From: a virus
Taxonomy: Duplodnaviria > Heunggongvirae > Uroviricota > Caudoviricetes
Length of the DNA stretch: 41,089 bases
Virus record (IMG/VR): IMGVR_UViG_2563366819_000008
Reading direction: 5' to 3' (one strand)
In this document: one piece after another, positions 7,296-41,089 of the stretch
How the letters are laid out: each line of letters begins with the position of its first letter
How positions within the stretch are numbered: position 1 is the first letter of the stretch
Notes under the pieces: generated by a model
Told to the model about the DNA's origin: nothing
The model's database searches: none
What the model saw: the letters and a program-made list of their open reading frames with translations, nothing else
Translations under genes and position numbers: made by a program

Positions 7296-7952
7296 ATGAA
7301 CGCTCAACTCATCCCCGTATTCAACGGCACTATATCTAACGAAACAGCCCTACTTTGTAATGCCCGCGATCTGCACGCTTTTTTAGGTGTTAAAAAGGTG
7401 TTTGCAGCATGGATTACAAATCGCATATCAGAATACGAATTCATTGAAAATCAAGACTATATTTTGCTTTCCAATTTGGGAAAGCAAACATCTGGTAGAG
7501 GCGGCCACAACCGCAAAGAGTACCACCTCACCCTTGATACAGCCAAAGAGCTGGCGATGGTCGAGCGTAACGAAAAAGGTCGTCAGGTACGACGCTACTT
7601 CATTGAATGCGAGAAACGTTTAAGACAACAAGAAACAAAAGTGGAGAAGGTCTTGTCAGGCTTCATGCCCGCCATTATGGAGGCGATCAAGCTGGAAGAC
7701 AAAAAAGAATACAGTGCCCCGCTGAAGCCCGGCTACCGCAGCCTGATTCATTCGCCGTCTGGTGTTCTCGGCCTGACGGAGAACTCACTGCTGATGAATC
7801 TGCTGAACCAGTTACAGGAAGACGGGCACGACGTATCGGGCGCGGCGGCGGAGCTGACCACCATGTTCTGCTACATCGTCGGTGTGAGCAAATGCCTGCG
7901 TGATATCCAGACGCACGCGGAGTACATCAACGACAAGGCAGGGTTCTTCTGA
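7296..7952 (+). CDS. Antirepressor (AntA-like N-terminal domain)
   Basis: N-terminal LIPVFNG...[10 protein letters not shown]...[16 protein letters not shown] resembles AntA/Rha-type antirepressor domains; lies in an immI-like position next to tailspike. Confidence 0.6.
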
Positions 7953-8239: not shown

Positions 8240-8680
8240 TTGAAGTTTAACATTAGAATATCTAATAGTTTTCTACATGGGGAAAGCAACACCCCTTTCG
8301 CTGTAGACGGACCTTTCCTTACTGATGATGAAATAAAAATCATACAAAGTTTTTTAGAGGATGTTGCCAATGGAAGGGCGCTTGTTGGAAAAAACAAGCC
8401 CTCGTGGGTTGATGATAACCATGATAAAATTCCCGGCTCAGACAATTATGAGCAAGAGAATTATTGGCATTATCATTGTGGGCCAACATGGTATCCAAAC
8501 ACATTTAAGAATTATACCATTAACTTAAATTTCAACCCTGGCGGAAGGCATTCTAATGAATGCATTCATTATGCAAAAAATGATAATGAAATTGTCATTG
8601 TTGGATTTTCAAGAGAACACATACCTTTCCTTTCATCAGATGGAAACAACAATCCGCTTTTTAATGATGAAGAAGAATAG
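8240..8680 (+). CDS. Hypothetical protein, AT-rich, probable TTG start, no internal Met
   Basis: In-frame TTG at 8240 with RBS caggag 6 nt upstream; upstream part of the 8099 ORF overlaps the 55-aa gene and looks non-coding; terminator follows. Confidence 0.4.
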   Translation: MKFNIRISNSFLHGESNTPFAVDGPFLTDDEIKIIQSFLEDVANGRALVGKNKPSWVDDNHDKIPGSDNYEQENYWHYHCGPTWYPNTFKNYTINLNFNPGGRHSNECIHYAKNDNEIVIVGFSREHIPFLSSDGNNNPLFNDEEE

Positions 8681-8700
8681 CCCGCGCTGCGGGCTTTTTT
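8680..8700 (+). terminator. Intrinsic terminator (GCCCGC/GCGGGC hairpin plus T6)
   Basis: agcccgcgctgcgggctttttt right after the 8680 stop. Confidence 0.65.
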
Positions 8701-8772
8701 GTGGACGAAACAAAAGTCAGTGCTACACTCATTGACGCCACATTGAGGTGGCTTATAGATGGAAATTTCACA

Positions 8773-8934
8773 ATGAAAAAAGCATTTGCTGCACTGTTCG
8801 TTTTGTTGTCTCTGGTAGCTTCAACTCAGGCCTTTGCCGGTCGTTGTCAGCACGACAGCGATACTGCCGCTGACGGCTCCCGCTGCGGTGGGCGTTCTGC
8901 GGATTCCCGCCCGGGTGGCGGTGGCATTCGTTAA
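8773..8934 (+). CDS. Small secreted peptide (53 aa, about 31-aa mature part with 2 Cys)
   Basis: Start at internal MKKAFAALFVLLSLVASTQAFA signal peptide; Gly/Arg-rich C-terminus. Confidence 0.35.
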   Translation: MKKAFAALFVLLSLVASTQAFAGRCQHDSDTAADGSRCGGRSADSRPGGGGIR

Positions 8935-8940
8935 AAACAA

Positions 8941-8956
8941 GGCCGCGAAAGCGGCC
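8941..8956 (-). terminator. GNRA-type hairpin GGCCGC-GAAA-GCGGCC, with U-run on the minus strand
   Basis: On the minus strand it follows the lipoprotein stop and the 12-bp palindrome and is followed by TTGTTTTT. Confidence 0.5.
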
Positions 8957-8957
8957 T

Positions 8958-8969
8958 GTGACATGTCAC
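8958..8969. repeat. 12-bp perfect palindrome GTGACATGTCAC (copy 1 of 3)
   Basis: Contains the TGA stop of the 8966..9346 lipoprotein gene; adjacent to terminator hairpin. Confidence 0.8.
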
Positions 8970-9346
8970 GCAACGCAATTATTACCGCGCCATGTAACAT
9001 TTTTAATAATCTTATCAGCACCAAACTCAACGTAAACAGAGCAACTGAAATGGAGTGTATAACCGCCATCAGTTGTTGCGTATGTGTTTGAATATATAGT
9101 ATTACCAATTAGATTAGACGTAGTATTATACGTTGTGGTTTGTGGTACGTTATAACTACCAGAGCTTGAGTAAACATACACTCTGTTTCCATCTGGAGAT
9201 GTAAGCTCTCCCTGAGGATACCCCCACTGCTGAACCATTGCGTCTATACTCTGCCCGCGCCACGTAAGCATATTTCTTTCAAACTGTGCAGCTGACTGGC
9301 ATCCAACGAGAAGCATAAATCCAAAAATCAAAAATACTTTTCTCAT
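8966..9346 (-). CDS. Lipoprotein of unknown function (cargo gene; superinfection-exclusion candidate)
   Basis: Start at MRKVFLIFGFMLLVGC with lipobox; RBS agggg; Thr/Ser/Asn/Tyr-rich mature domain. Confidence 0.55.
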   Translation of the reverse strand: MRKVFLIFGFMLLVGCQSAAQFERNMLTWRGQSIDAMVQQWGYPQGELTSPDGNRVYVYSSSGSYNVPQTTTYNTTSNLIGNTIYSNTYATTDGGYTLHFSCSVYVEFGADKIIKNVTWRGNNCVA

Positions 9347-9431
9347 AATTACCCCTATCATGGAAAAACAGCACCAATCCACAAATTAACTAGTTATTTT
9401 ATTATTCTTCCGAACAATACAATTCCGAATA

Positions 9432-9557
9432 CTACAAAGCCGAACCATGCCGCTGCACGCAACAGAGATTCCAATTGAAACCCATTTTTATCAAAATGTA
9501 TGAATAGCATAAAAACGCTGCACATATTAGTACAATAAAAGTTATTTGAACCATCAT
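9432..9557 (-). CDS. Possible 41-aa hydrophobic membrane peptide
   Basis: ATGATG preceded by RBS ggaga; hand translation MMVQITFIVLICAAFLCYSYILIK...; competes with the 62-aa track ORF 9394..9582 in another frame. Confidence 0.3.
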   Translation of the reverse strand: MMVQITFIVLICAAFLCYSYILIKMGFNWNLCCVQRHGSAL

Positions 9558-9565
9558 ATCTCCTT

Positions 9566-12040
9566 TTATTGCGGAGTGACATCCTGTGGTCGCCACCAGT
9601 ATGTCTGGTTAAACTCTTTCTTCGAACGTTGCTCCATTTTACGCAAATAGCCTGGTGAAAAATACTCCTGCATCTGGTTAAAGATCATGTGATCGAGAGC
9701 CGCCTTCAAGTACCAGAGATTCGCACCAGGCATCAAACCTTTCCCCAGCTTCACCAGATCACCACCAGTCTGCTCACTCTTCCCTTCCACAGCATTTAAC
9801 GGTATGCCCTGAGCAATCTTCACTACGTCATCAACCAGACCAGCTACCGGGCCAAGCATCGACGCCAGCGCGCCGCTTCCGTACCTAGTGTGATCTGACA
9901 ATAAAAAGTCACCGTAAAGGCCAAGACCACCACCTTTCAGTAGAGCACCAAGCCAGAATTTTGCGGCATCTTCTCCTGTCATCTCTCGAGGATTACGACC
10001 AGACGCAAGGTCGTTAAGTTGCTGCGACAAAGCGCCAAGAATGGTCGTACTGGCAATAAACGTCGCAATATATGCCGCACGCCCACCAGCAGACGGCATA
10101 CCCATAGCGCGTGACCAGTGACGCATAACAACCGAGATAGGGAACGATTTAAACAGGAAAACACTTCTCGTTAATTCACCTTTCCATGTTCCACGCTGAA
10201 TACCAGAACCGGTTATCAGTTGCTCACGTGCTCCCGGTGTAATAACAGCCATATCAACTTCTTCAGTTACGGCACCGAGCAGTTTACGCATTGCCTCAAA
10301 TTTCACGCGTTCAGGCTCACCAAGATGTTTAACTGCTGAATCAGGGATACGCATAATGCTTTCCGGTGTCAGCATCGTATTATTACCGTTCCCCCAGTCC
10401 TCCTGTTTCGCCAGCTTCCATACGCTCCAGTCTGTGTCAGTAATCCCTTTGCTTTTCAGGATACGAAAATCAGAGTCATCGAGGCTACGAAGGTCTGGTG
10501 TCCGTGACACTACTTCTCCCAGGCTTCCCATCATGGTTACGCCATAGGCGCGCTTGTGCGCATCTGACCATGCTGTAAGCCCACTGGCACGCATTACCGC
10601 CGTTGCCGCCCAACGAGACACTGACGGCCCCATATTATCCATCGCCCAGCGGTTAACGCTGCCAAGTAGAGATTCCATCGCCAGACCAGCGCGGCGCGCC
10701 CGCGCAAGTTCTGTACGGTTCGTTGGGTCCATAGCTTCAAGCTGGTTGCGGAATAACTGGTTCATTGGAAGGTTGGTAACCTTCGCAGACAGATACATGG
10801 TTCCAAGATCAGAGAACGATGACAGCAACGCGGATCCGAGTCTGCTGGCAACCAGCCAGTTGCGGATATTGTCAGACCATCGCGCGATGTGCGGATTCGC
10901 TACAGGCTGTGTCTTTCCGGAAATAAAGTTGTACAGATTCTCTGTGTTGTTCGCCAGCCGCTCGACTTTACCGGTTTTACTCGGGTTAGCTGTTGCCGTT
11001 TCTGCCTTCACCTGATCAAGAAGAGAGCGGAAAACATGATCGGGGTTTGGGCCATATGTTTCCACCAGTGCAATATCTTTACTGATACCTTCCAGGTGAC
11101 AGACCATGATTTCCCATAGAGAGCGATCGCCATAAAGTTGCTGATATTGCAGATAGGAATCTGCATCTTTGAAATGTATCTGTCGTGATGCATTACCACG
11201 GTTAGCACGTGCGCCGGAAATTCGCATTCCGGTATCAGTAAGCTTATTCAGCCCACCAGTAGCGATCGTGTTATAAGCCTCTCCAAGAAATGAAGACAAC
11301 TCGGCATCGTTCATCAGTTGTCCATCGGCTCGGATATAATATTTGCGATCCAGCTTACCTATAACATCGCTAACCCACTTATCCTTTGATACTGCCCCAA
11401 CCTTTTCCATAGAATGATGTTGAGGGATCCCCCAGTTTTCGAGATAGCCAATGTCCCCACCAGCATCATTAAACCGGCGGCGCAGCAGCTCTGTAACTTC
11501 TCTCCACGCCTTAGCACCGTTTCTTGCTTTAGCATTGCCAGTATTTTGCCCCCGCATTTCATATACCAGGTCACGTACGCCCGCTTCATCTTCAAACAGA
11601 CCAAAAAAGCGAGGATCAACTGCTTCGAATGCCTCCTGCAATTGACTCAATGCATAATCACGGGTGGCTTTTGTTCTGGATTCAACAGAGAGGAAATTAG
11701 ATTTACCGTCTGCATTAAAAGCTATAGTACGGTTAAGAGCGCCAAGTTTCCCATCAGCCCCTTGATAGCTATTGATAAATTTATCCAATCTCTGACGCGC
11801 GGCTATAGTGAGAGCCACACGACGTTTATTTAATGCCGCTTCTCGCTGTAATTCTTCAGATGCCAATTGTGCTGCTCGATATAGCCGCTCTGATTCGGAA
11901 AGTTGTCGCCACGACATAGTGTCATCACGAGCAATGGAGCGCATATTTCGATAAATGCGGTCTTCAATGTTCTGTATTTCTCGCGCCGTTAACATGCGCT
12001 GCGCCGCCTGCTGAACCGCTTGTATACATTCCTGTCTCAT
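9566..12040 (-). CDS. Internal virion (core/ejection) protein, 824 aa
   Basis: One of four consecutive structural ORFs between tail tubular genes and the accessory island, as in podoviruses; no motif recognised. Confidence 0.5.
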   Translation of the reverse strand: MRQECIQAVQQAAQRMLTAREIQNIEDRIYRNMRSIARDDTMSWRQLSESERLYRAAQLASEELQREAALNKRRVALTIAARQRLDKFINSYQGADGKLGALNRTIAFNADGKSNFLSVESRTKATRDYALSQLQEAFEAVDPRFFGLFEDEAGVRDLVYEMRGQNTGNAKARNGAKAWREVTELLRRRFNDAGGDIGYLENWGIPQHHSMEKVGAVSKDKWVSDVIGKLDRKYYIRADGQLMNDAELSSFLGEAYNTIATGGLNKLTDTGMRISGARANRGNASRQIHFKDADSYLQYQQLYGDRSLWEIMVCHLEGISKDIALVETYGPNPDHVFRSLLDQVKAETATANPSKTGKVERLANNTENLYNFISGKTQPVANPHIARWSDNIRNWLVASRLGSALLSSFSDLGTMYLSAKVTNLPMNQLFRNQLEAMDPTNRTELARARRAGLAMESLLGSVNRWAMDNMGPSVSRWAATAVMRASGLTAWSDAHKRAYGVTMMGSLGEVVSRTPDLRSLDDSDFRILKSKGITDTDWSVWKLAKQEDWGNGNNTMLTPESIMRIPDSAVKHLGEPERVKFEAMRKLLGAVTEEVDMAVITPGAREQLITGSGIQRGTWKGELTRSVFLFKSFPISVVMRHWSRAMGMPSAGGRAAYIATFIASTTILGALSQQLNDLASGRNPREMTGEDAAKFWLGALLKGGGLGLYGDFLLSDHTRYGSGALASMLGPVAGLVDDVVKIAQGIPLNAVEGKSEQTGGDLVKLGKGLMPGANLWYLKAALDHMIFNQMQEYFSPGYLRKMEQRSKKEFNQTYWWRPQDVTPQ

Positions 12041-12045
12041 TTAAT

Positions 12046-13848
12046 TTAACCTCTCAAGAAACACGCCACAGCGACATCAAACAGGCTGGAATCCTGTATT
12101 GCCTGCTCACTTTCCCTGTTCGCTTCATCCAGTGCTTCACGCGCACTGCGCGATTGTGGATTACCATCATCATCCAGCACGGTGATTATCATGTCAGGTG
12201 ATTCAAGCAGCGAGTCTTCAGCTATGCGCAAATCAATATCTCCTGCCTGATCTGACATCATTTTTTGTTCTGCCTGTTGCAATATTTTATCAGGCTCAAA
12301 AGGAGCTACTTCGTCTGGCGTCCTGACCTCTGCTGTTTTATAGAATGAAACAGCCTGAGCATTAAGTTCACTTTCTGCCTGCTGTCTCCGAGCCAGTTCT
12401 GCTCGAGCTTCAAAAAACTGACCGCCAGGCTCATGCGGTGCCAACGCGTTACGAGAAAATTCCAGGCGTTCTTGTGCCTGCCGGATTCGTTGGTCAATAT
12501 CGCGAAGTCTGGCCTGTTTATCTGATCGAGCACGAGATAAAGCCTTACCGCTACCGGCTGGATCTTCTGCAAGAATTTGTGCGCGCTGTTCAGTGAGATT
12601 TTCAATAATTCGTTGGCTATTAGCGATTTCAGACTGGTAAACCTGTCTATCGCCACGCGGCAAAAGCTGCGCGGCCTGTTCTTCAAGCAACCGATTTTCT
12701 ATAGCGCGCGCCGTTACTCCATCATCTACAGATGACAGAGCCTCATTAACTGCCTGAGACAGCAGACTCTTGCGTCCAGGAATTTCACTGAAAGATGCAG
12801 ACTCAACAATGCTGGCAACGTCTACAGGTCTCCCCTGGCTAACATCAGACATGGCTTTTCGCAGAGCCTGAATGTGCGAATTACGCGAAAGCACGTTGAT
12901 CGGCACGCCGGGAGCAATATCAATTTCAGCATGATGAGCGGCATTCGCCGCCAGTGCAGCATCGATATCAACTGGTGAAAAATTTGGTGCGCTTGTAGAC
13001 TCGCCGCGAGAGTTAATAAATCTGCCGACACCACCAAACGCCACCCCAAGAACAGCATCAATAGCAATTGCCTGTCGATCCAACACATCATACTGGTTAG
13101 CCATTTCGCTATAGCCACCATCACGAAGCGTTTTTGCAGTAAGCCCACGCTGTGCCATACCGAACGCAATATTTGTACCTGCGGCATAGGCAATATCTGG
13201 CGTTGCACGTACTGCTGTTGCTGCGGCGCGTCGCACTGAACTTTCACCCGTCCGCGCAAGCTGAGCCGCCACACCTTCCGCCAGCGCACCACCAGCACGT
13301 AACCCGAGGCTCATAGGGATCAGTGTTCCGGCACCAGCAGTAATACCCTGCACTAATCCCGCTTCCTGCGCCGTCCTGAAATCAACACCCTGTGCTGTAA
13401 GCCGTTCAAACTCAGAAAAACCCTGTAGAGAAGTTACCGCCGCAGCACCTCCGACCGGACCACCGAGCGTTGTACCGACAACAGCCTGCCCGCCCATATC
13501 GAACAACCCATAAAGGACCTGCCCGGCGGTTCCGGTTGTCGCGGCATCAGGCGTCAGCCGCTTAACCTGCTGCTCTGCTAGTTTTCTCTGCTCAGCAATG
13601 TATGAAACTGAAGTGTCATTGATCGAGGTGTTTTCGTTAACAAACTGAGCAATCGGGGATACGATTTTATCCATCCCTGCCCATAGCAACTGATCTGGCT
13701 TTGCCACCAGCCCGGAGTACAAACCAGACAATGCCGCTCCTACAGCATTGTCGAAAAAACCAACATCGCTGTTAAAGCCAGCTGGATTTGATGCTGCTTC
13801 GTCAAGCTGCTGATTCTGGTTTACTGGATTAAGGCCAAAGTAACTCAT
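12046..13848 (-). CDS. Internal virion protein, 600 aa, Ala/Gly-rich
   Basis: Position in virion operon; low-complexity Gly/Ala segments. Confidence 0.45.
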   Translation of the reverse strand: MSYFGLNPVNQNQQLDEAASNPAGFNSDVGFFDNAVGAALSGLYSGLVAKPDQLLWAGMDKIVSPIAQFVNENTSINDTSVSYIAEQRKLAEQQVKRLTPDAATTGTAGQVLYGLFDMGGQAVVGTTLGGPVGGAAAVTSLQGFSEFERLTAQGVDFRTAQEAGLVQGITAGAGTLIPMSLGLRAGGALAEGVAAQLARTGESSVRRAAATAVRATPDIAYAAGTNIAFGMAQRGLTAKTLRDGGYSEMANQYDVLDRQAIAIDAVLGVAFGGVGRFINSRGESTSAPNFSPVDIDAALAANAAHHAEIDIAPGVPINVLSRNSHIQALRKAMSDVSQGRPVDVASIVESASFSEIPGRKSLLSQAVNEALSSVDDGVTARAIENRLLEEQAAQLLPRGDRQVYQSEIANSQRIIENLTEQRAQILAEDPAGSGKALSRARSDKQARLRDIDQRIRQAQERLEFSRNALAPHEPGGQFFEARAELARRQQAESELNAQAVSFYKTAEVRTPDEVAPFEPDKILQQAEQKMMSDQAGDIDLRIAEDSLLESPDMIITVLDDDGNPQSRSAREALDEANRESEQAIQDSSLFDVAVACFLRG

Positions 13849-16358
13849 TGCGGAATATCTCCGGAGAATCTCTGACGCTTCTGTGTCAGATTAAGAACAA
13901 CGGGAGAACCATCATCTTTCAGCAGATAACCAGTACCAAGTTTCACCAGGTACTGACTATCGCCGTAACTTTGCAAACCATACTGACCAGGCGGTGTTTT
14001 TATCCCGGAGCCGACAACTTGTTCATTCCAAGCCTGATTAACCTGCTTATCGAATTGCTCTGCAGACATTCCCCACGGCAAAAGGACATTCCCCATTCCG
14101 TTATAGTCATGCACGCCACCTGTAGCTACGTTAACAGCCTGTTTCCAGACATCATTGTCAATTTCGCCTGATACCACGCCTTTTTTCGCCATCACACCAG
14201 CGTAATAATCCTTTGCGATCTCGTATGCCATTGATGCGCCCTGAGCGTCACCAGCAAATGCATCCTTCACCATGTCAGAAAACTCAAGGCGAAGATCAGC
14301 ATCTTTAGGCATCGGAATACCTTTCGCATCATCAGTACCTTTACGAGCCGCCGCGCCAGCAAGAATTGTCTGCGCAGCGGTTTCAGGAGACACGGAAACA
14401 TCCGGATTAAACCAGTTTTTTTCTGCCAAAATACCACCAGGCTTATCCATCAGTATCCCGGCAACGGCAGCAGATGGAGCGTTGGCACTGATCTGCTGTA
14501 GTGCTGACATATACACCTGCCCACCACCAGTGCTCTGCCTGATGGTATCGAGATATGCTGCCTGTTGGGAAACTGGAGCATCACGAAAGAAAACACCGAT
14601 CTGATTGGCCTCGTCTTTGGAAAAGAACGTCAGTAGAGTGCCATATGACTTAGCAAGGTCACTGACCTGAGCGGCACGCAAGGCAACGCTCTGTCCAAAG
14701 TTATCCTTATTGCTCATGTCGATAGGCTTTGCCTGTCCGGAGGCAAGAGAGAACTGCACAGGATCCGACTGCCGCTGCTTTATCACCTGATTTGCAGCCG
14801 AAACAACGTTGTCATAAAGAGTTGCGCGTGCCGCATACCCCTCCCCTGTATCACCAGTATCCGGGCGTAATTGCTCAACATATGCTGTAATGCTGCTTGT
14901 CGGCATGTTGCGGAAAGAGCCTATATACTGTCCGGCGATCTGCGTATTCTTAAACTCGGTATATCGCAGGTTTCCTTCTCTGACTCCATAAGCTGCAATA
15001 AAATCATCCTCACCAGGTGGGTTAGGAAATTCAATGCCACGCATATACGCAGCCGTCGCATCGCGAACCCGGCTGTCGAGCATCGTTTTATATTCAGCCT
15101 GCTGTTGTCTGGCTAGTGCATCAGTCTGTCGCAACACGCTGGCCTGATCTGATTCACTTAAAGCATCGAACCAGGCTACACCGGTATAACGTTTATTTTT
15201 TGTCGGTAGCTGAGAAAGCCCCAGCGCAGCACTAACACCTGCAGTTAACTGCTGATCACTGTATGGCTGGCTACCGTTTTCATGATGGATAATGGCTGCA
15301 CAAAGCGCCTTCAGGGTATCAGGATTTGATGCATCGAGAGGCTCATCAGCAGAAACGCCAAGTTGTTCGCACACTGCTTTGATATACGACATAGTGTCAT
15401 TTTTATCAGTAGGCGGTGCCCAGCGATTAATTATCTCGCTGACGGTATCAATACCCTGCCGCTGATACGACATCAGGTTCCGCCCTAATGCACGAATACC
15501 GTGTTCAGGGGTTTCGAATTTGGCAAAGCGACCATCATCACCAGTCTGCCCAACCCACGGATTAGTTTTGCTGTATTCAAGATTGCCGGGGTTATTGTTG
15601 CGTATACCGCGGGTACGATCGGAAGAGCCACTATCTGCTACAGCACGGCGAGAACCAGCAGCAGTATCGCTTAACTCTCCGTTTTGCTGTCTTACCTGAA
15701 GATAGTTTGCTCCAATAGCATTTTGAGCAGTTGCTTTTGCTGTTGCTTCTTTAAACTCGATTTTCTTGGCCTGGATTTGCTCGTCACTCCAGCCATGTGC
15801 AATGCCGTAATCCTCAATTTGCTGGAAAGTTTGCTTATTAGCCAATACGTATGCGGCGTTGTCGCCATACAATGCTGCGGCATTTTTACCATTGTTCAGC
15901 AGCGTAGCCTGAAACTGGCCTTCTTCGTAGGCATTTATTTGCCCTATCTCGTGCCGCCCGGCCTGCGTAGTGAACTGAATGCGCTGCTGCTGCGCCTGCT
16001 GCATGAAAGCATTACGAGCCTGTTCATCCGGCAGCGACATAGCCAGTTGTTCGACCTGAGCATCAAACTGCTGCGTATACTCCTGACCTTTTCCAATAGC
16101 ATTTTTCCCTTTCAGGTTAAGCAAACCTGTTTCAGGGTTATTCAGCAGATCGCTGCTTATCTGGCTTAAGCTAAGAGAAGCATCCTGAGCCATAGCAACA
16201 TTCGCACGCTGTTTTGCCTGCGCAATAATACCTGCATATTGCTCTGCAACATCGCCAAGTACATCACCGACATTTGGTGTCTGAAACGATGAGAATCCCT
16301 GCGTCGAAATCCCTCTGCTCTGAACCTGACGGCCCGATGTTGTTGGTACAACTGGCAT
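13845..16358 (-). CDS. Internal virion protein, 837 aa, possible cell-wall-active domain
   Basis: Position; conserved-looking block IRNNNPGNLEY...GIRALGRNL; enzymatic assignment is speculative. Confidence 0.45.
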   Translation of the reverse strand: MPVVPTTSGRQVQSRGISTQGFSSFQTPNVGDVLGDVAEQYAGIIAQAKQRANVAMAQDASLSLSQISSDLLNNPETGLLNLKGKNAIGKGQEYTQQFDAQVEQLAMSLPDEQARNAFMQQAQQQRIQFTTQAGRHEIGQINAYEEGQFQATLLNNGKNAAALYGDNAAYVLANKQTFQQIEDYGIAHGWSDEQIQAKKIEFKEATAKATAQNAIGANYLQVRQQNGELSDTAAGSRRAVADSGSSDRTRGIRNNNPGNLEYSKTNPWVGQTGDDGRFAKFETPEHGIRALGRNLMSYQRQGIDTVSEIINRWAPPTDKNDTMSYIKAVCEQLGVSADEPLDASNPDTLKALCAAIIHHENGSQPYSDQQLTAGVSAALGLSQLPTKNKRYTGVAWFDALSESDQASVLRQTDALARQQQAEYKTMLDSRVRDATAAYMRGIEFPNPPGEDDFIAAYGVREGNLRYTEFKNTQIAGQYIGSFRNMPTSSITAYVEQLRPDTGDTGEGYAARATLYDNVVSAANQVIKQRQSDPVQFSLASGQAKPIDMSNKDNFGQSVALRAAQVSDLAKSYGTLLTFFSKDEANQIGVFFRDAPVSQQAAYLDTIRQSTGGGQVYMSALQQISANAPSAAVAGILMDKPGGILAEKNWFNPDVSVSPETAAQTILAGAAARKGTDDAKGIPMPKDADLRLEFSDMVKDAFAGDAQGASMAYEIAKDYYAGVMAKKGVVSGEIDNDVWKQAVNVATGGVHDYNGMGNVLLPWGMSAEQFDKQVNQAWNEQVVGSGIKTPPGQYGLQSYGDSQYLVKLGTGYLLKDDGSPVVLNLTQKRQRFSGDIPQ

Positions 16359-17374: not shown

Positions 17375-19845
17375 CAGAACCCACCAACAGTAAGGCGAGG
17401 AATAACGGCAAGAACAGACAGCGGCAACGGATCAAGCTGACGGATTTTTACACGTCCGTTTTTGCCCCAGTTACTGTCCAGTTTCACTTCTACTTTTCCG
17501 GTAGCATCATCAACAGGATCATCGTAGAACTCGAATTCACGCTGTGGATATTCGTACCATTTACCGCCGGGCGTAGTCGCCCAGATGCCGCGACTGGCAT
17601 TCACAACCAGAGTAACGGACGGGATCACCTGTTTTTTGTCCAGCAGCGTTTCCTGTCCGTTAATGTTGATATCCAGTGTTTCGAATTCAGCAGTTATTGG
17701 CAGGCCGATGTGCACTACAGCCCCCGGTGATTCCAGCGTGACGGCACCTCCGGAAACCACTTTCTGTGGTTCCACGTTCGCATCAGAGAGAATGTTTACG
17801 GTCTGGCCTTCAAGATGAGACAGGCCTCCAAATGTCCGGCGCGCCATCTGCCAGTTCGTGGTGGCCACATTCCTGAGGGATGGCGGGACGTTCCTGTTAG
17901 CACGAACCACTACAGCGGTATTGCTGGTTACAGAAATAATGTCGCAACGTAATTCTTTTGACACCTCATCGCCAGTATCAGGATCAGTTCCGGTATAAGG
18001 GAACTGTAGTTGCGCGCCGACATCACTACTGGTGAAGTACGCACCACCAGAAACACTGATTGTATATTCCGCGCGGTAATCCCATTCGCCAGAACCACCA
18101 GTGATGATCATCGTTCTGTCAGACGTATTTCTTCCATCATAGCTAAGGCCAGAATCAACAAAGAAAGCATCTTCATCGCTGGTAAATAAACGGCTGGACA
18201 GTCGCTCGATGTATCTCACTGTTTGCCCGTTAACGGTTCGGTTAACGACGAAATACACCGCATCTTCATTGCCTTCGCTGATACTGCATGTGCTTTCATA
18301 TTTTCCGGTACTGGATTGTGGTGCCCATGCAAAAACCTGCTGATCACGCAAATAGGTCATCACCAGTAATTTACCGTCATCACGAATGCAAAAGGCACTG
18401 GAGTAAGGGACAATCGAGAAGCACCAGTCAACAATGCTGTGCTTCTGAAAAAGATGATTGGCAAGGATGGTCAGGTCGTTCCCCTGATAGCCGTCAACAT
18501 CAAATGAGTAGGCCAGATCACGGACAACGCTGCCTTTCTCCTGGACGAACAGAGCAATATTCGCCACGGCAATTGGCGGGACGTTGCTTGAGCCATTTGA
18601 TCCCTGAGAGCTGAATGCGAATGATGATGGGGTAAGCACTTTGTTCTGGTCGCCGGTGATGACGTACTCACCTCCGGAAGTCAGCGCCACCAGCGAACCG
18701 ACATCAATCAGGTGGCGGATCTCATTAACCTGACGCCCGGCATAGGTGTAGATAATTCTGTCGTCATCCTGCGTAGGATTGCTTTTGCCAAAATCCTTAT
18801 AATCCCCGGTACGGCTGGCCCAGATAGTCTGAGGAAACGCAGTCGATGCGGCGAAGTAAAGACGTTGTTGATAATAAACAACAGTGCCAGGATAACCATT
18901 AACACTGTTCCAGGCATATTTAGCCCATTTATAGCTGGCATTATCCTCGCCAACTACCTGCGAAGGGATATAGGAAATCACCTCGGCAGTTGCAGTAGTT
19001 CCATTTGCAGCAGAGATACGGGCAATGCCAAAACCACTGTGCAGATACTCCCACTCAATGCCGGTATCATCATCACCGGATCCGCCCCAGCCATCCCATG
19101 ATGTGCCTTCTGTATGCGAAGGGCGCAAAGTGCCTGTTTTGCCTACTGTAACGGCGCGATAGTAGTTACTGTCTGCACGGCGAATATCGCCAATTGACGT
19201 ACTCTTACTGGTTTCCCATACCGGCACAGAATCCACTGCAGGCTGTTCCAGATAGAACAATTTGCCTACCTGCTCCGCGCCAAAAATAGAGGCGCTTGCC
19301 GTTAACGTAATTGTCCCGGTGCTGGCGCTGGCATAAACCGTCACTGACTCGTCAATATTGATATCTTCAAATGGTCCGTTCTTCGTTACCACATCAACCA
19401 GTTGCCAGTTGTCATGCGCATAGCGACGCAACTCTTTCGGCGGGTATGCCGGATGAACAAGCGTAAGCACGTCGGCGCTTTGCGTGAATTTAATTCGGAA
19501 CAGATCGGCTTCAGTATATGGCGTGGCAATTTCATAAATAACATTGCTGCTGTTCAGCACCAACGCACCATCTTTGATAACGCGCATGTACTGGTGTCCG
19601 AACTCCAGAGCATAGGTCTGAACCGTCGAGAACTGGAACGGGATCAGGCGGCATTTCCGATTTGGGTATTTGGCGGCACCGACAAAACGCGTACCTGGTC
19701 GATTCTCAACGCCGCCATACTGCCGCACGATAAAGTTATCGCACTTGCGCAATGCCACCTGGTACTTCGCCATGTCAATACGCCCGTACAACGACGGTCC
19801 AATCTCACCACCGGCAAAGCTGGGCTGGATCCAACTGATAGCCAT
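17374..19845 (-). CDS. Tail tubular protein B-like (nozzle), 823 aa
   Basis: Size and position immediately after a tail tubular A-like gene. Confidence 0.5.
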   Translation of the reverse strand: MAISWIQPSFAGGEIGPSLYGRIDMAKYQVALRKCDNFIVRQYGGVENRPGTRFVGAAKYPNRKCRLIPFQFSTVQTYALEFGHQYMRVIKDGALVLNSSNVIYEIATPYTEADLFRIKFTQSADVLTLVHPAYPPKELRRYAHDNWQLVDVVTKNGPFEDINIDESVTVYASASTGTITLTASASIFGAEQVGKLFYLEQPAVDSVPVWETSKSTSIGDIRRADSNYYRAVTVGKTGTLRPSHTEGTSWDGWGGSGDDDTGIEWEYLHSGFGIARISAANGTTATAEVISYIPSQVVGEDNASYKWAKYAWNSVNGYPGTVVYYQQRLYFAASTAFPQTIWASRTGDYKDFGKSNPTQDDDRIIYTYAGRQVNEIRHLIDVGSLVALTSGGEYVITGDQNKVLTPSSFAFSSQGSNGSSNVPPIAVANIALFVQEKGSVVRDLAYSFDVDGYQGNDLTILANHLFQKHSIVDWCFSIVPYSSAFCIRDDGKLLVMTYLRDQQVFAWAPQSSTGKYESTCSISEGNEDAVYFVVNRTVNGQTVRYIERLSSRLFTSDEDAFFVDSGLSYDGRNTSDRTMIITGGSGEWDYRAEYTISVSGGAYFTSSDVGAQLQFPYTGTDPDTGDEVSKELRCDIISVTSNTAVVVRANRNVPPSLRNVATTNWQMARRTFGGLSHLEGQTVNILSDANVEPQKVVSGGAVTLESPGAVVHIGLPITAEFETLDININGQETLLDKKQVIPSVTLVVNASRGIWATTPGGKWYEYPQREFEFYDDPVDDATGKVEVKLDSNWGKNGRVKIRQLDPLPLSVLAVIPRLTVGGF

Positions 19846-21658: not shown

Positions 21659-22651
21659 TTACACCACGCGGGCTTCTGTTTCCAGAAGTGCGTCAGTTTC
21701 GCGAATCGGCACACCACGAAGTGCTGTCCACCATTCGCCTTCTGTCTCTTTCACGCTGATCGCCAGAGAACTCTTCTCCAGAGATTGCAGGTCAAGCACT
21801 TCGTTAATGGTTCTGTTCATGTAGAAAACAGGACGTCCCATCCCACGATTTGGGATTCGATGAAGGGCACGAATCATCAGTTTTGCGATATTCGCGGCAG
21901 TAGAAGGAGCGTCAAGATTACTGACATCAATGTTTGCGATACGAACTACATAGCGCCAGTCACGTAATGTCAGCCCGTTGTCCCACTTATAATGGGTACG
22001 ATAACCTTCGTACTTGCCGCCATTAGCATCTTCCAGTGTCACCTGACCTTTATCTTCCATCTGAATGCCAGCCTTCTGCCCTTTCGGGAAGATGCCATGC
22101 ACGGTGTTTTCGCCCCACACCACTAACCAGATTGAAGTGTTATCTGTACCCGTGCCACCAGCATCAATGATGTTCTGAGCATTACCCGCAGACAGGCTGG
22201 AATAGCGGGAGGACAGTCCCATAAACTGCTGAGGGTTAACGCTGGAATCACCGTAAAACAGCGTCTGCGCCATCGCCTGATTCATCGCTTCAATAAATGC
22301 TCGGTCTTCAGACAGGCGGAATTCGGCAGTATTACCGTTCAGATCAGCCAGAGACTTATCGACTTCAGCATAGGTTTCCAGCATGCCAATGGAATCAGTG
22401 ACCTGCACCGTTGTTGATTTGCTCGGTTGTACGCCATAGTTCAGCAAACGCCAGGTAGCGGAAGGTAAACCAGAACGAATGGTGGTTCGGTGTCCGGTAG
22501 GAAGGTTTCCTTCAACAAAAGGCATATCCTGAAGGATTGGGTTAGTTTGACTGAGAAGCTCGATAATCTTATCGACTTTCCCGTTTGGATCGACGCGCTT
22601 ACCCCAGTCAGCCAGCGTTAGCGCAGTTAAGCCTTTAACAGCCATTGTCAT
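21659..22651 (-). CDS. Major capsid protein (330 aa)
   Basis: Size and position directly after scaffold gene; strong RBS. Confidence 0.6.
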   Translation of the reverse strand: MTMAVKGLTALTLADWGKRVDPNGKVDKIIELLSQTNPILQDMPFVEGNLPTGHRTTIRSGLPSATWRLLNYGVQPSKSTTVQVTDSIGMLETYAEVDKSLADLNGNTAEFRLSEDRAFIEAMNQAMAQTLFYGDSSVNPQQFMGLSSRYSSLSAGNAQNIIDAGGTGTDNTSIWLVVWGENTVHGIFPKGQKAGIQMEDKGQVTLEDANGGKYEGYRTHYKWDNGLTLRDWRYVVRIANIDVSNLDAPSTAANIAKLMIRALHRIPNRGMGRPVFYMNRTINEVLDLQSLEKSSLAISVKETEGEWWTALRGVPIRETDALLETEARVV

Positions 22652-22659
22652 TTCCTCTC

Positions 22660-23355
22660 TTATTTGCCATAGAGCACTTCGGCCGCACTACGCTGGCCTT
22701 CATTACCACCGGTGACCATGCCATCTTCAGACATCGCCTTTCCGATTTTCACGAACGTTTTGACCAGATCAGGGTGATTACCCAGCCCGGTGGTGTTCAG
22801 ATATTCTTTGAGCTCAGGTGTCCCGAACTGGTCAAGCGCACGCTGTGCGGCGCTAAGGTTAGAAATCAACTTGTCGCCACCGATTTCTTTGTCAGCTTTT
22901 ACATCCGCAGCCCACTGCTCGGTTGTTTTCTGCCAGGCTTCTGCCTGGCGCTGCTGAACACCTGCCAGAATCTTCGGATAAGCATCAACCAGCTTTTGCG
23001 CTTGCTCGTTGGTCAGGTTAAGTTCTCGCGCCACAGGCTCGAATTCCTTCAACGCTTCTGTATCCAGCTCTACGCCTTCGGCAGCCTGAAACTCGTACTT
23101 CTCAGGCGCACCCTCTGGTTTATCGCCGTCCTTTTTTTCATCCTGCTTATCGTTTTCAGGCTTTTTGTCATCAGCAGGTTTATCGCCATCAGCAACAGGT
23201 TGTGGCTTATCACCTTCCGATTGTGATGGATCACCAACTGGAGCATGGTTATCACCTGCAGGCGCTGACGGTTCTGACGCAGCCGGAGCTGCTCCACCAT
23301 CGACTGGTTGCTCATTGCAAAGACGGCGATACAGCAAACGCTCAAATAAATTCAT
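22660..23355 (-). CDS. Scaffolding protein
   Basis: Acidic, low-complexity Pro/Asp/Lys-rich N-terminus and helical C-terminus; between portal and capsid. Confidence 0.55.
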   Translation of the reverse strand: MNLFERLLYRRLCNEQPVDGGAAPAASEPSAPAGDNHAPVGDPSQSEGDKPQPVADGDKPADDKKPENDKQDEKKDGDKPEGAPEKYEFQAAEGVELDTEALKEFEPVARELNLTNEQAQKLVDAYPKILAGVQQRQAEAWQKTTEQWAADVKADKEIGGDKLISNLSAAQRALDQFGTPELKEYLNTTGLGNHPDLVKTFVKIGKAMSEDGMVTGGNEGQRSAAEVLYGK

Positions 23356-23357
23356 GA

Positions 23358-23654
23358 TCACTCCTGTTCACTGGCCTCTTTGGCCATCTTCAAATACTGT
23401 TCAGGGCAATGCGCCATAACGCGCTGAAACAGTTCCAGCGCCAGATTGCGTTGCCCCTCATTAAATGCCATTGCCATAGCGTCCATCGGTGAGATAGCGG
23501 AAAACACACGGCCTTTCTCCAGCACCGACCAGACAACGCGACGCCCCTGTTCACTGCTCATGACAAAGCGAATGTCATCAATTTCACGCTGTGCCATGTC
23601 ACGTTGCTTACGGGCGTTTTCTTCTTTCAGTTGATCATCTTCGTAATCTGTCAT
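23358..23654 (-). CDS. Hypothetical small protein between portal and scaffold
   Basis: Overlaps portal stop; conserved position in head module. Confidence 0.4.
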   Translation of the reverse strand: MTDYEDDQLKEENARKQRDMAQREIDDIRFVMSSEQGRRVVWSVLEKGRVFSAISPMDAMAMAFNEGQRNLALELFQRVMAHCPEQYLKMAKEASEQE

Positions 23655-25978: not shown

Positions 25979-26055
25979 GTGGCATTAGCTCAGTCGGACA
26001 GAGCAACCGCCTTCTAAGCGGTTGGTCGCAGGTTCGAATCCTGCATGCCACGCCA
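25979..26055 (+). tRNA. tRNA-Arg, anticodon UCU (reads AGA)
   Basis: Acceptor stem GTGGCAT/ATGCCAC, D arm GCTC/GAGC, anticodon stem ACCGC/GCGGT with loop CTTCTAA, T arm GCAGG-TTCGAAT-CCTGC, 3' GCCA; similar but not identical to host argU. Confidence 0.85.
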
Positions 26056-26680: not shown

Positions 26681-26692
26681 GTGACATGTCAC
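26681..26692. repeat. 12-bp perfect palindrome GTGACATGTCAC (copy 2 of 3)
   Basis: Between the 26676 stop and the terminator hairpin. Confidence 0.8.
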
Positions 26693-28898: not shown

Positions 28899-28910
28899 GT
28901 GACATGTCAC
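28899..28910. repeat. 12-bp perfect palindrome GTGACATGTCAC (copy 3 of 3)
   Basis: Contains the TGA stop of the 28907..29248 gene; about 50 bp upstream of the tR'-like hairpin. Confidence 0.8.
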
Positions 28911-39838: not shown

Positions 39839-41089
39839 TTATTCCCCCGCCATCCACTTCTCAAACTTCGACGGGGAGAACGGAATCAGATCCGTATGCT
39901 CCCCGTCAATCCATGAATCAATCATATCGGCCCACTGCTGCAACATGTAGGCGCGCTGTCTGGCGTATTCCGCTTTGTTATATACGGCGCGCACACCTTT
40001 CTGCTCATGTGCCAGAGCCTTTTCAATCCAGTCTGAAGGATAACCAGCCTCATGCAACAACGTACTGGCTGTACGGCGCATATCATGTACAGTGAAGTCC
40101 TGAATATGCTCACCATCTTCATTTATTATTTTCACCGTTCTGTCGATCAGAGAGTTCAGCGCGGCATTAGATAATGGCTTCCGGAAATTGTAACGACCAG
40201 GAACCAGATATTCACTTCCACCAGCGCACATCTGCAACCCGACCAATATATCCTGTGCCTGTTTAGGCAGGTAAATAACGTGCGCCCGGCTTCCCTTCAT
40301 GCGGTCTGGAGGAATTGTCCATGTCCATTTTTTAAAATCTATTTCATCCCACGTTGCATTGGTGAATTCGCCCTTACGAACCATAGTGATAAGCACCAGT
40401 TTTAAAGCCATTTTCATAGTGCCCATAGCACCAATGGCATCCAGCGTGCGGAAGAACAGGCCAATTTCTTCTGGTGTCAGTGTTCGCTCTCGTGGTTTAA
40501 ATATGGCGATAGACGAAGGTTTAATGTCAGCCGCAGGATTAAACAAACCATGACCACGGTCATTGGCGTGACGGTATACGCTACTGATGATCTCCCTGGC
40601 CTGCACTGCTGTTGCCCGGCCACCGCGTTCGACAATCCGGTCACACAAATCACGAACCATCGATGTGGTAATTTCAGCCATCATTTTATTGCCAAGAACC
40701 GGAAGTATGTCACGGTCGATCACCGCCTGTTTCATTGCGCGGGTACTGTCAGCCAGGATGACGTGTTTCATATAACTGTCGGTATGTACCGCAAACGTCT
40801 CGGCACCACGAATCTTTTTGATACCGTCACGTTTAGCCGCAGCCGGTGACTGGCCTGCTTTAAGCAGCTTCTTTGCAGCAATCAGTTCTTCTCGCGCTTC
40901 TGCCAGGCTGATACCGTCACGCCCATACTGCCCGATTACCAGTGTTTCGCGGCGACCGTTGATACGGTAGTCATAGCGAAACGAGACCGTGCCTGACGTA
41001 AGCACAGCTACATACAGCCCGTCACGATCGGAGACCTTGTACAGTTTGTCCTGCGGCTTGAGGTTTTTTAATTTTGTATCGGTAAGCAC
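39839..41089 (-). CDS. Tyrosine integrase (P4-type); 5' end at window edge
   Basis: N-terminus LTDTKLKNLKP...DKLYKVSDRDGLYV; C-terminal catalytic region with conserved R/H/Y context; first codon in window is GTG. Confidence 0.85.
   Translation of the reverse strand: MLTDTKLKNLKPQDKLYKVSDRDGLYVAVLTSGTVSFRYDYRINGRRETLVIGQYGRDGISLAEAREELIAAKKLLKAGQSPAAAKRDGIKKIRGAETFAVHTDSYMKHVILADSTRAMKQAVIDRDILPVLGNKMMAEITTSMVRDLCDRIVERGGRATAVQAREIISSVYRHANDRGHGLFNPAADIKPSSIAIFKPRERTLTPEEIGLFFRTLDAIGAMGTMKMALKLVLITMVRKGEFTNATWDEIDFKKWTWTIPPDRMKGSRAHVIYLPKQAQDILVGLQMCAGGSEYLVPGRYNFRKPLSNAALNSLIDRTVKIINEDGEHIQDFTVHDMRRTASTLLHEAGYPSDWIEKALAHEQKGVRAVYNKAEYARQRAYMLQQWADMIDSWIDGEHTDLIPFSPSKFEKWMAGE

Follow-up and report, generated by a model that had tools for sequence, protein, structure and literature searches.

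The distal end of the late operon in the DNA analyzed here (the window: 41,089 nucleotides from IMG/VR virus record IMGVR_UViG_2563366819_000008, Caudoviricetes) is a recombination-prone accessory slot, in which a gene for a putative lipoprotein, by all sequence indications real and under strong purifying selection, lies downstream of a small open reading frame (ORF) that is most likely the remnant of a frameshifted membrane-protein gene. We hold this anatomical account with high confidence. Once extended by a mechanism in which the lipoprotein excludes superinfecting phages, the statement as a whole becomes tentative, and we would give it somewhat less than an even chance. Sequence comparison identifies the window as a prophage of the epsilon15/phiV10-like (Uetakevirus) Escherichia coli type with a K1 endosialidase tailspike; the region of interest matches phage vB_EcoP_ZX5 and strain FDAARGOS_1301 at 100% identity, and prophages of K1 strains, CE10 and APEC O1 among them, at 99.7 to 99.9%.

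A putative lipoprotein gene under purifying selection

8966–9346, minus strand: lipoprotein gene, 126 residues (MRKVFLIFGFMLLVGC followed by QSAAQ...); signal peptide, residues 1 to 15; lipobox LVGC (Cys16); mature domain, 110 residues.

The first-pass annotation of this DNA had placed a 127-residue lipoprotein with a Thr/Ser/Tyr-rich mature domain at these positions. The gene and its lipobox LVGC stand, and Thr, Ser, Tyr, Asn and Gly together make up 48% of the mature part; the length is to be corrected to 126 residues, 127 being the number of codons with the stop included. The alignment of homologues and the RefSeq annotation back the start at 9346, and so does the GGGG ribosome-binding site that precedes it by 5 nt. 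A 138-residue version from a GTG start found no support.

The signal peptide, MRK-VFLIFGFMLL-VGC, fits the lipoprotein rule (a basic n-region, a hydrophobic h-region and a lipobox of the form [LVI][ASTVI][GAS]C), and the protein gives a weak match to LPAM_1 in Pfam. Cys16 does not vary within the close family, and its conservation in a wider alignment is 90% or more. After it come Gln at +2 and Ser at +3, with no Asp at +2. Under the Lol-avoidance rule of Enterobacteriaceae, a lipoprotein without Asp at +2 goes to the outer membrane; sorting to the outer membrane is predicted from this rule and the Gln at +2, and the lipoprotein should be located there. A word-indexed search retrieved 37 homologous clusters, all from Enterobacteriaceae and nearly all of 126 to 127 residues, in which Cys16, Cys102, Cys124, WGYP, GN-VYVY and the C-terminal GNNC are invariant. 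Pairwise nonsynonymous divergence (dN) is 0.13 to 0.49 with synonymous sites saturated, and the ratio of nonsynonymous to synonymous divergence (dN/dS), where computable, is 0.05 to 0.18. The ORF is intact in every copy, with purifying selection evident across E. coli, Salmonella, Klebsiella, Raoultella and other lineages. Given the homologous clusters, the invariant columns and the low dN/dS, the ORF did not arise by chance.

Predicted fold and the wider family

An AlphaFold model built from the alignment (mean predicted local distance difference test score of 85) places two short helices before a five-stranded sheet of long hairpins, a predicted two-helix and β-sheet arrangement of the BamE/SmpA_OmlA type that resembles BamE, OsmE, CAP-associated-N and BLIP domains. 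Foldseek comparison with BamE chains returned probabilities of 0.9 to 0.99 and template-modeling scores of ~0.5, with E-values that were not significant; the nearest models in BFVD are an uncharacterized phage protein and "SmpA/OmlA" lipoproteins of Pseudomonas phages. A profile search of PDB sequences gave marginal matches only (4h0a, E = 0.015), in line with the fold result. Compared with BamE/SmpA_OmlA, OsmE, BLIP-like and CAP-associated-N domains, the lipoprotein has much longer β-hairpins rich in Thr, Ser, Asn and Tyr, along with a conserved C-terminal GNxC disulfide motif; nothing ties it to the BAM complex. SmpA_OmlA (PF04355) was matched neither by the lipoprotein at E ≤ 1 nor by any of 64 family members at E ≤ 0.01, no family model in Pfam, NCBIfam or PADLOC matches the lipoprotein, and its only significant match in PHROGs is phrog_3716, annotated as of unknown function.

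An exhaustive profile search, in which each representative stands for a cluster at 50% identity, returned 3652 representatives at E ≤ 1e-3 and 1055 at E ≤ 1e-10. The 63 family members sampled share the same motifs (W-G, WGYP, PNGN-VYVY, C-T-FE and GN-C), and none of these relatives matches a Pfam or NCBIfam family beyond signal-peptide noise. The distant members are stand-alone chromosomal genes of Gamma- and Alphaproteobacteria, Campylobacterota, Desulfobacterota, Nitrospirota, Planctomycetota and others; their neighbors are unrelated, and the neighborhoods examined hold no conserved neighbor that hints at function. Homology, shared motifs and the stand-alone chromosomal members in many phyla mark the phage lipoprotein as one branch, taken up by phages, of a large and unannotated family of lipoproteins in double-membraned bacteria.

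The small ORF upstream as a probable frameshift remnant

9560–9565, minus strand: Shine–Dalgarno sequence AAGGAG, directly after the TAA of the 824-residue ejection-protein gene, 2 nt before the ATG at 9557 and 5 nt before the ATG at 9554.
9432–9557, minus strand: small ORF in frame A, 41 residues (40 from the ATG at 9554), MMVQITFIVLICAAFLCYSYILIKMGFNWNLCCVQRHGSAL; by hydropathy, one hydrophobic helix and then an out-of-frame tail.
9511–9515, minus strand: run of five T (T5 run), the likeliest frameshift site from frame analysis and a DNA alignment with phiv142-3.
9394–9510, minus strand: continuation in frame B (−1), ...MLFIHFDKNGFQLESLLRAAAWFGFVVFGIVLFGRIIK and then a stop; holds the conserved second transmembrane helix.

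Between the ejection-protein gene and the lipoprotein, a possible 41-residue membrane peptide with a strong ribosome-binding site had been suggested as a candidate small membrane toxin or exclusion factor. The ORF, its hydrophobic helix and the AAGGAG are indeed present, but within the start context ATGATGG the better spacing (5 nt) makes the ATG at 9554 and a product of 40 residues likelier, and the encoded M(M)VQITFIVLICAAFLCYSYILIKMGFNWNLCCVQRHGSAL, with its stop at 9432, is most likely the truncated 5′ part of a two-helix membrane-protein gene in which a one-nucleotide frameshift has become fixed in this lineage. Frame B is open throughout and ends at 9394, and one extra T in the T5 run would yield a single 54-residue, two-helix ORF whose architecture matches that of relatives. 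The 57-residue protein of phiv142-3-type phages aligns at the DNA level with both halves of the window region; by BLASTP, frame B shares 39% identity with it over 38 residues (E = 9e-6), and the conceptual one-frame window protein shares 27% over 48 residues. Two frames that stay open for 56 and 43 codons arise in 0.16% of shuffles of the region. A metagenome contig (L009) that is otherwise ~99% identical carries a 26-nt deletion that fuses the frame-A start to frame B and gives a 44-residue product. It is the homologous second helix in frame B, the improbable pair of open frames and this re-fusion that support a frameshift.

No single ORF of the window holds both helices, helix 1 being in frame A and helix 2 in frame B, whereas the two-helix gene is intact in 38 of the 39 type-2 loci (cassette types are listed below). 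A protein search for an intact 54-residue version recovered, apart from the deletion variant of L009, nothing but the same phage's frame-B ORF. The T5 state was found in all 34 E. coli genomes, in 9 of 9 IMG/VR loci and in 7 of 7 metagenome contigs, the last scanned with a DNA pattern allowing four to seven T; since all these copies are nearly identical, its fixation is uninformative.

Could the small ORF nevertheless be functional? It might encode a 40- or 41-residue peptide toxin or exclusion factor, or a −1 slippage at G_UUU_UUA (9516–9510) might give both a one-helix and a 54-residue two-helix product. The perfect AAGGAG and the good start at 9554 speak for this, as do the T5 state of all copies sampled, a frame B that is still open and the position of the T run at the frame junction. 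On the other hand, fixation among near-identical copies carries no evolutionary information, G_UUU_UUA is not a canonical X_XXY_YYZ site and no stimulatory structure was identified for it, the L009 variant drops half the helix and the whole frame-A tail and keeps frame B, the frame-A tail has no homologue among 5.8 billion proteins, and neither ORF is called in the RefSeq annotation; we consider a functional small ORF improbable. The frame-A ORF has no match in Pfam, PHROGs, NCBIfam or PADLOC, and in particular no toxin of the Hok, TisB or Ldr type was matched by the small peptide in Pfam, NCBIfam or PADLOC; an Rfam scan of positions 8400 to 9800 returned no relevant element, the only match being a sub-threshold Trp_leader elsewhere in the stretch. 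With a frameshift remnant the probable reading and no family matched, the proposal of a dedicated toxin or exclusion factor is not upheld, and in this lineage the peptide upstream of the lipoprotein has probably ceased to contribute. The case also carries a caution, in that a convincing ribosome-binding site and a hydrophobic ORF do not suffice to call a small gene.

Four interchangeable cassettes in an accessory slot

To place the two window genes in context, we surveyed 80 IMG/VR loci anchored on the C terminus of the 824-residue protein, which is 96 to 100% identical among loci, and found four cassettes of small envelope proteins between the same flanks:

Cassette 1: a 46-residue two-helix protein alone (phiV10 p21 type); 15 alleles, with a ratio of nonsynonymous to synonymous polymorphism (pN/pS) of 0.26.
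Cassette 2: a 57-residue two-helix protein and a 98-residue three-helix protein (phrog_3075, annotated as of unknown function).
Cassette 3: the window type, with the frameshifted two-helix gene and the lipoprotein.
Cassette 4: the lipoprotein alone.

The edges of the slot are marked in the window by the following features:

9566–12040, minus strand: gene for the last internal virion (ejection/core) protein, 824 residues; phrog_684, "virion structural protein" (E = 0); equals phiV10p20. Its stop codon is the upstream edge of the slot.
8958–8969: 12-bp palindrome GTGACATGTCAC, which overlaps the lipoprotein stop codon and is the downstream edge of every cassette type.
8930–8957, minus strand: intrinsic terminator, AGGCCGC-TTTC-GCGGCCT (hairpin, 8957–8940) and then the T tract TTGTTTTT; ends the late-operon extension.

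Every cassette type begins with a ribosome-binding site at or overlapping the stop of the ejection gene (TAAGGA...) and ends at GTGACATGTCAC, followed by the terminator. The palindrome occupies the 3′ junction in phiV10, in phiv142-3 and in the Salmonella and Klebsiella loci. Three exact copies occur in the window (8958–8969, 26681–26692 and 28899–28910) against 0.2 expected, with a one-mismatch copy at 23591–23602; of the other two exact copies, one lies just upstream of the small terminase gene, the other accompanies a terminator adjacent to the large terminase gene, and the palindrome may be a regulator-binding site or a recombination boundary. The terminator downstream of it is shared, head-to-head, with a convergent plus-strand gene.

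The slot thus holds at least four interchangeable cassettes, and the peptide and the lipoprotein are independent modules and not the pair they had been taken for: Salmonella and other loci carry the lipoprotein alone, and phiV10-type phages carry the two-helix protein alone. Both phiV10 p21 and the 57-residue protein of phiv142-3-type phages share position, stop-codon coupling and hairpin architecture with the two-helix gene of the window; the 57-residue protein is a detectable homologue of the conceptual repaired product, whereas the window frame is interrupted. The two-helix protein of the slot matches phrog_7892, also annotated as of unknown function, and in relatives the two-helix proteins are under selection, as the pN/pS of cassette 1 indicates. 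Such mosaicism raises the question of whether the window cassette is a neutral passenger that travels by recombination at its conserved flanks and at present serves neither phage nor host. A highly mosaic slot and the loss of one of its two genes are what one would then expect; the lipoprotein is intact in every copy and under strong purifying selection, which makes a passenger very unlikely.

In every phage copy examined, the lipoprotein gene stands directly after the last ejection-protein gene. In Salmonella, it begins 9 nt after the 824-residue gene, and the tailspike downstream is of the GDSL-lipase type in one locus and of the P22-tail type in another. In Klebsiella, it follows a 921-residue gene across a 142-nt spacer without a same-strand ORF, and the spike belongs to Phage_tail_beta. 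In Raoultella and another relative, a membrane protein of 99 to 109 residues precedes the lipoprotein, its stop overlapping the lipoprotein start, and in other contigs the stop of the ejection gene abuts the lipoprotein start. Together with the endosialidase/Peptidase_S74 type, at least four tailspike types are found beside this phage branch, which favors a link to the ejection machinery and disfavors one to the polysaccharide receptor. Two side observations concern these loci. The 99- to 109-residue proteins (L092, 5675–6004; L091, 5705–6004) have two central transmembrane helices and an ATGA overlap with the lipoprotein start, and the order of two-helix protein then lipoprotein recurs with non-homologous two-helix partners. 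The Klebsiella spacer holds an antisense 39-residue hydrophobic ORF (MKSKMITFFLRLTVLAVFILALNIVIYGIPRIFGMPWIN; L006, 3855–3974, minus strand of the locus).

Expression and alternative roles

The lipoprotein gene and the small ORF run in the direction of the late operon, with ribosome-binding sites next to or overlapping the stop codon of the ejection gene, and no terminator is predicted between the 824-residue gene and the lipoprotein; cotranscription with the late operon is the default expectation. Upstream of the cassette, there is one weak match to the promoter consensus (9 of 12 positions, 9582–9553), and promoter-like sites in the region number eight, close to a shuffle expectation of 5.1 ± 2.3. 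The AT-rich setting first described, between the virion genes (the 824-residue gene, 9566–12040) and AntA (7296–7952), is confirmed: the lipoprotein gene has a G+C content of 0.40 and the cassette one of 0.38, compared with 0.49 in the neighboring virion genes. Two features of a moron, an own terminator and a deviant G+C content (0.38 against 0.49), are present in the cassette.

Late expression brings in a possible role in the lytic cycle, in which a late outer-membrane lipoprotein would aid lysis or release, whether as a partner of spanins or by making the outer membrane or the BAM complex weaker, or would condition the envelope of the producing cell. The late-operon position, translational coupling, lack of an intervening terminator and BamE-like fold are all compatible with such a helper. 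A complete lysis cassette, however, lies ~6 kb away, and a slot that is dispensable and swappable, with many relatives lacking the lipoprotein, is unlike an essential lysis or assembly function; we regard this role as quite unlikely, if a little less so than a functional small ORF. As for the narrower idea that the lipoprotein is itself a spanin (an Rz/Rz1 o-spanin), it was rejected in view of the separate and complete lysis cassette beyond the tailspike and of a mature domain that is a folded 110-residue module.

A second alternative is a host-fitness or conversion gene, that is, a captured envelope lipoprotein that aids the lysogen in envelope stress, serum or bile resistance or outer-membrane homeostasis, in the manner of Bor or of an OsmE-type protein, with no effect on infection. 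The broad family is chromosomal across many phyla of double-membraned bacteria, the fold is BamE/OsmE-like, the carriers include the extraintestinal pathogenic K1 strains CE10 and APEC O1, and the base composition is foreign, all of which accord with a host role. Against it stand the coupling of the gene to the late operon and the failure to detect a promoter of its own; the strict placement after ejection genes in every phage copy examined fits a role in the phage cycle better, and no virulence literature on the lipoprotein was found. A host-fitness gene is thus an unlikely alternative, yet a more credible one than a lytic helper.

A possible role in superinfection exclusion

If the lipoprotein acts in exclusion, it would be made mainly through late-operon read-through and coupling, possibly at a low level in lysogens. 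Lipid attachment at Cys16 and transport by the Lol pathway would bring it to the inner leaflet of the outer membrane, a Cys102–Cys124 disulfide would stabilize it, and it would serve there, or in the periplasm, as a module that binds or blocks. The target would be a step that incoming phages of the same type go through once the capsule is bound: triggering at the outer membrane, or else the building of the ejection channel across the periplasm or the enzymatic activity of that channel. Superinfecting phages would thereby be excluded, or progeny spared from losing their DNA to cell debris, as with phage T5 Llp and T4 Imm and Sp. By analogy only, the blocking of a receptor or of DNA entry, as the first-pass annotation had suggested, is a reasonable hypothesis.

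Small phage outer-membrane lipoproteins that block the receptor FhuA are represented by T5 Llp and by Cor of phi80 and N15; T5 Llp is disulfide-stabilized and also shields progeny from inactivation by debris. The window lipoprotein is like them in being a small phage-encoded lipoprotein of outer-membrane type, although without a sequence match, and T5 Llp is not among the structural matches listed for it. The primary receptor of the window phage, with its endosialidase tailspike, is a polysaccharide. In phage T4, Imm is a small two-helix inner-membrane protein and Sp is a membrane-anchored, periplasm-facing inhibitor of the tail lysozyme gp5, an arrangement paralleled by the two-helix protein and lipoprotein of the slot, with a transglycosylase-like ejection protein as possible target. 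Imm and Sp are, however, early genes without homology to those of the window; there, the reading frame of the two-helix gene is interrupted, and its pairing with the lipoprotein is not obligate. The lipoprotein belongs to no characterized exclusion family, nor to SmpA_OmlA by sequence, is BamE-type in fold and can be likened to Llp, Cor and Sp in its proposed job. The window genes are already public as hypothetical proteins, and the lipoprotein is of a known kind, that of phage accessory envelope lipoproteins.

The slot also recalls P22 SieA, which is encoded in the same intermodule region of a short-tailed temperate phage, between the ejection genes and ant/tailspike, and acts on the envelope. 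P22 SieA blocks DNA entry, and escape mutations map to the ejection proteins gp16 and gp20 (PMC10883804). SieA is a multi-helix inner-membrane protein, not a lipoprotein, and has no sequence similarity to the window lipoprotein. The case for P22 sieA as a strict positional analogue is weakened by its convergent orientation and own promoter, and the analogy is regional only.

Several points weigh against an exclusion role. In the P22 record, sieA faces gene 16 in convergent orientation and is served by its own promoter, whereas the window genes are co-oriented with and coupled to the late operon. No convincing σ70 promoter was found upstream of the cassette; with neither a promoter nor a separating terminator, prophage expression, a typical trait of exclusion genes such as sieA, is assumed without support by a moron or exclusion reading. 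The BamE fold match is only moderate, and the ancestral function of the family is cellular, not anti-phage, its distant members being chromosomal in many phyla. The paper on ZX5 lists these ORFs only as hypothetical, and exclusion, plausible by analogy, is a function that we only infer. Neither product matched a known exclusion, defense or toxin family in PHROGs, PADLOC, NCBIfam or Pfam, and a literature search turned up nothing on the lipoprotein, on phiV10 p21 or on exclusion in Uetakevirus.

On the predicted fold, which often serves protein binding or inhibition, a more specific proposal can be framed, namely that a phage-captured BamE-like lipoprotein is a periplasmic decoy or inhibitor of the ejection-channel assembly or enzymes of incoming podophages, for example of the transglycosylase-like 837-residue protein described below. 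This would combine a new fold with a new target, and the alternative cassettes of two-helix and three-helix proteins would be further, unrecognized exclusion factors; we think it unlikely, on a par with a host-fitness gene. Should an exclusion role hold in its general form, epsilon15-like phages of E. coli, Salmonella and Klebsiella would have in this slot a compact collection of anti-phage factors that work at the envelope; this would matter for therapy with phages against K1 and other capsulated strains, and for understanding how the ejection channel of short-tailed phages is built. Whatever its function, the lipoprotein points to a family that has no Pfam or NCBIfam model and comprises more than 3600 clusters (at 50% identity), and a member carried by a phage, open to study by simple plating, could offer practical access to the role of that family. 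The most useful by-products of the analysis are this large unannotated family and the cassette structure of the slot.

Gene order and other features of the window

Upstream of the slot, the minus strand encodes, in order, an internal virion protein of the T7 gp14 family and proteins of 837, 600 and 824 residues, all of which are internal core/ejection proteins. The 837-residue protein (13845–16358, minus strand) has PHROGs matches to endolysin and tail-injection transglycosylase over approximately residues 157 to 569, and is a possible periplasmic target of an inhibitor-type lipoprotein. On the other side of the lipoprotein, the plus strand encodes a 53-residue signal-peptide protein, a hypothetical protein and the AntA antirepressor, after which the minus strand continues with the endosialidase tailspike and then a complete lysis cassette (two holins, a GH19 endolysin and a DUF2514 Rz-type spanin), ~6 kb from the lipoprotein and beyond the tailspike gene.

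8773–8934, plus strand: convergent neighbor, 53 residues, with a signal peptide and a G+C content of 0.57; phrog_14503, "membrane associated protein" (E = 2e-40); a RefSeq coding sequence.
7296–7952, plus strand: AntA.

The convergent 53-residue protein has a Gly/Arg/Asp-rich tail (MKKAFAALFVLLSLVASTQAFAGRCQHDSD...) and AT-rich surroundings, and phrog_14503 is in the moron category. Its ORF is common among related phages, TL-2011b included, and its orientation relative to the ejection genes resembles that of P22 sieA.

A phage-borne tRNA-Arg (anticodon TCT) lies at 25979–26055 on the plus strand, between the terminase and portal regions. Between the portal and major capsid genes, a "peptidase" gene is annotated by RefSeq as frameshifted in the 100% identical prophage (17741–18437 there, ~22650–23350 on the minus strand of the window), where the window has overlapping ORFs at 22660–23361 and 23070–23345; this could be a second frameshift of this phage, real or programmed. 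Finally, in FDAARGOS_1301 (NZ_CP070111.1), the annotation shows the same integrase, WP_033551257.1, at either end of the 41-kb stretch (388–1635 and 41026–41089), and a 1-kb query matches three places in NZ_CP070111.1, which suggests tandem or multiple prophage copies in this strain.

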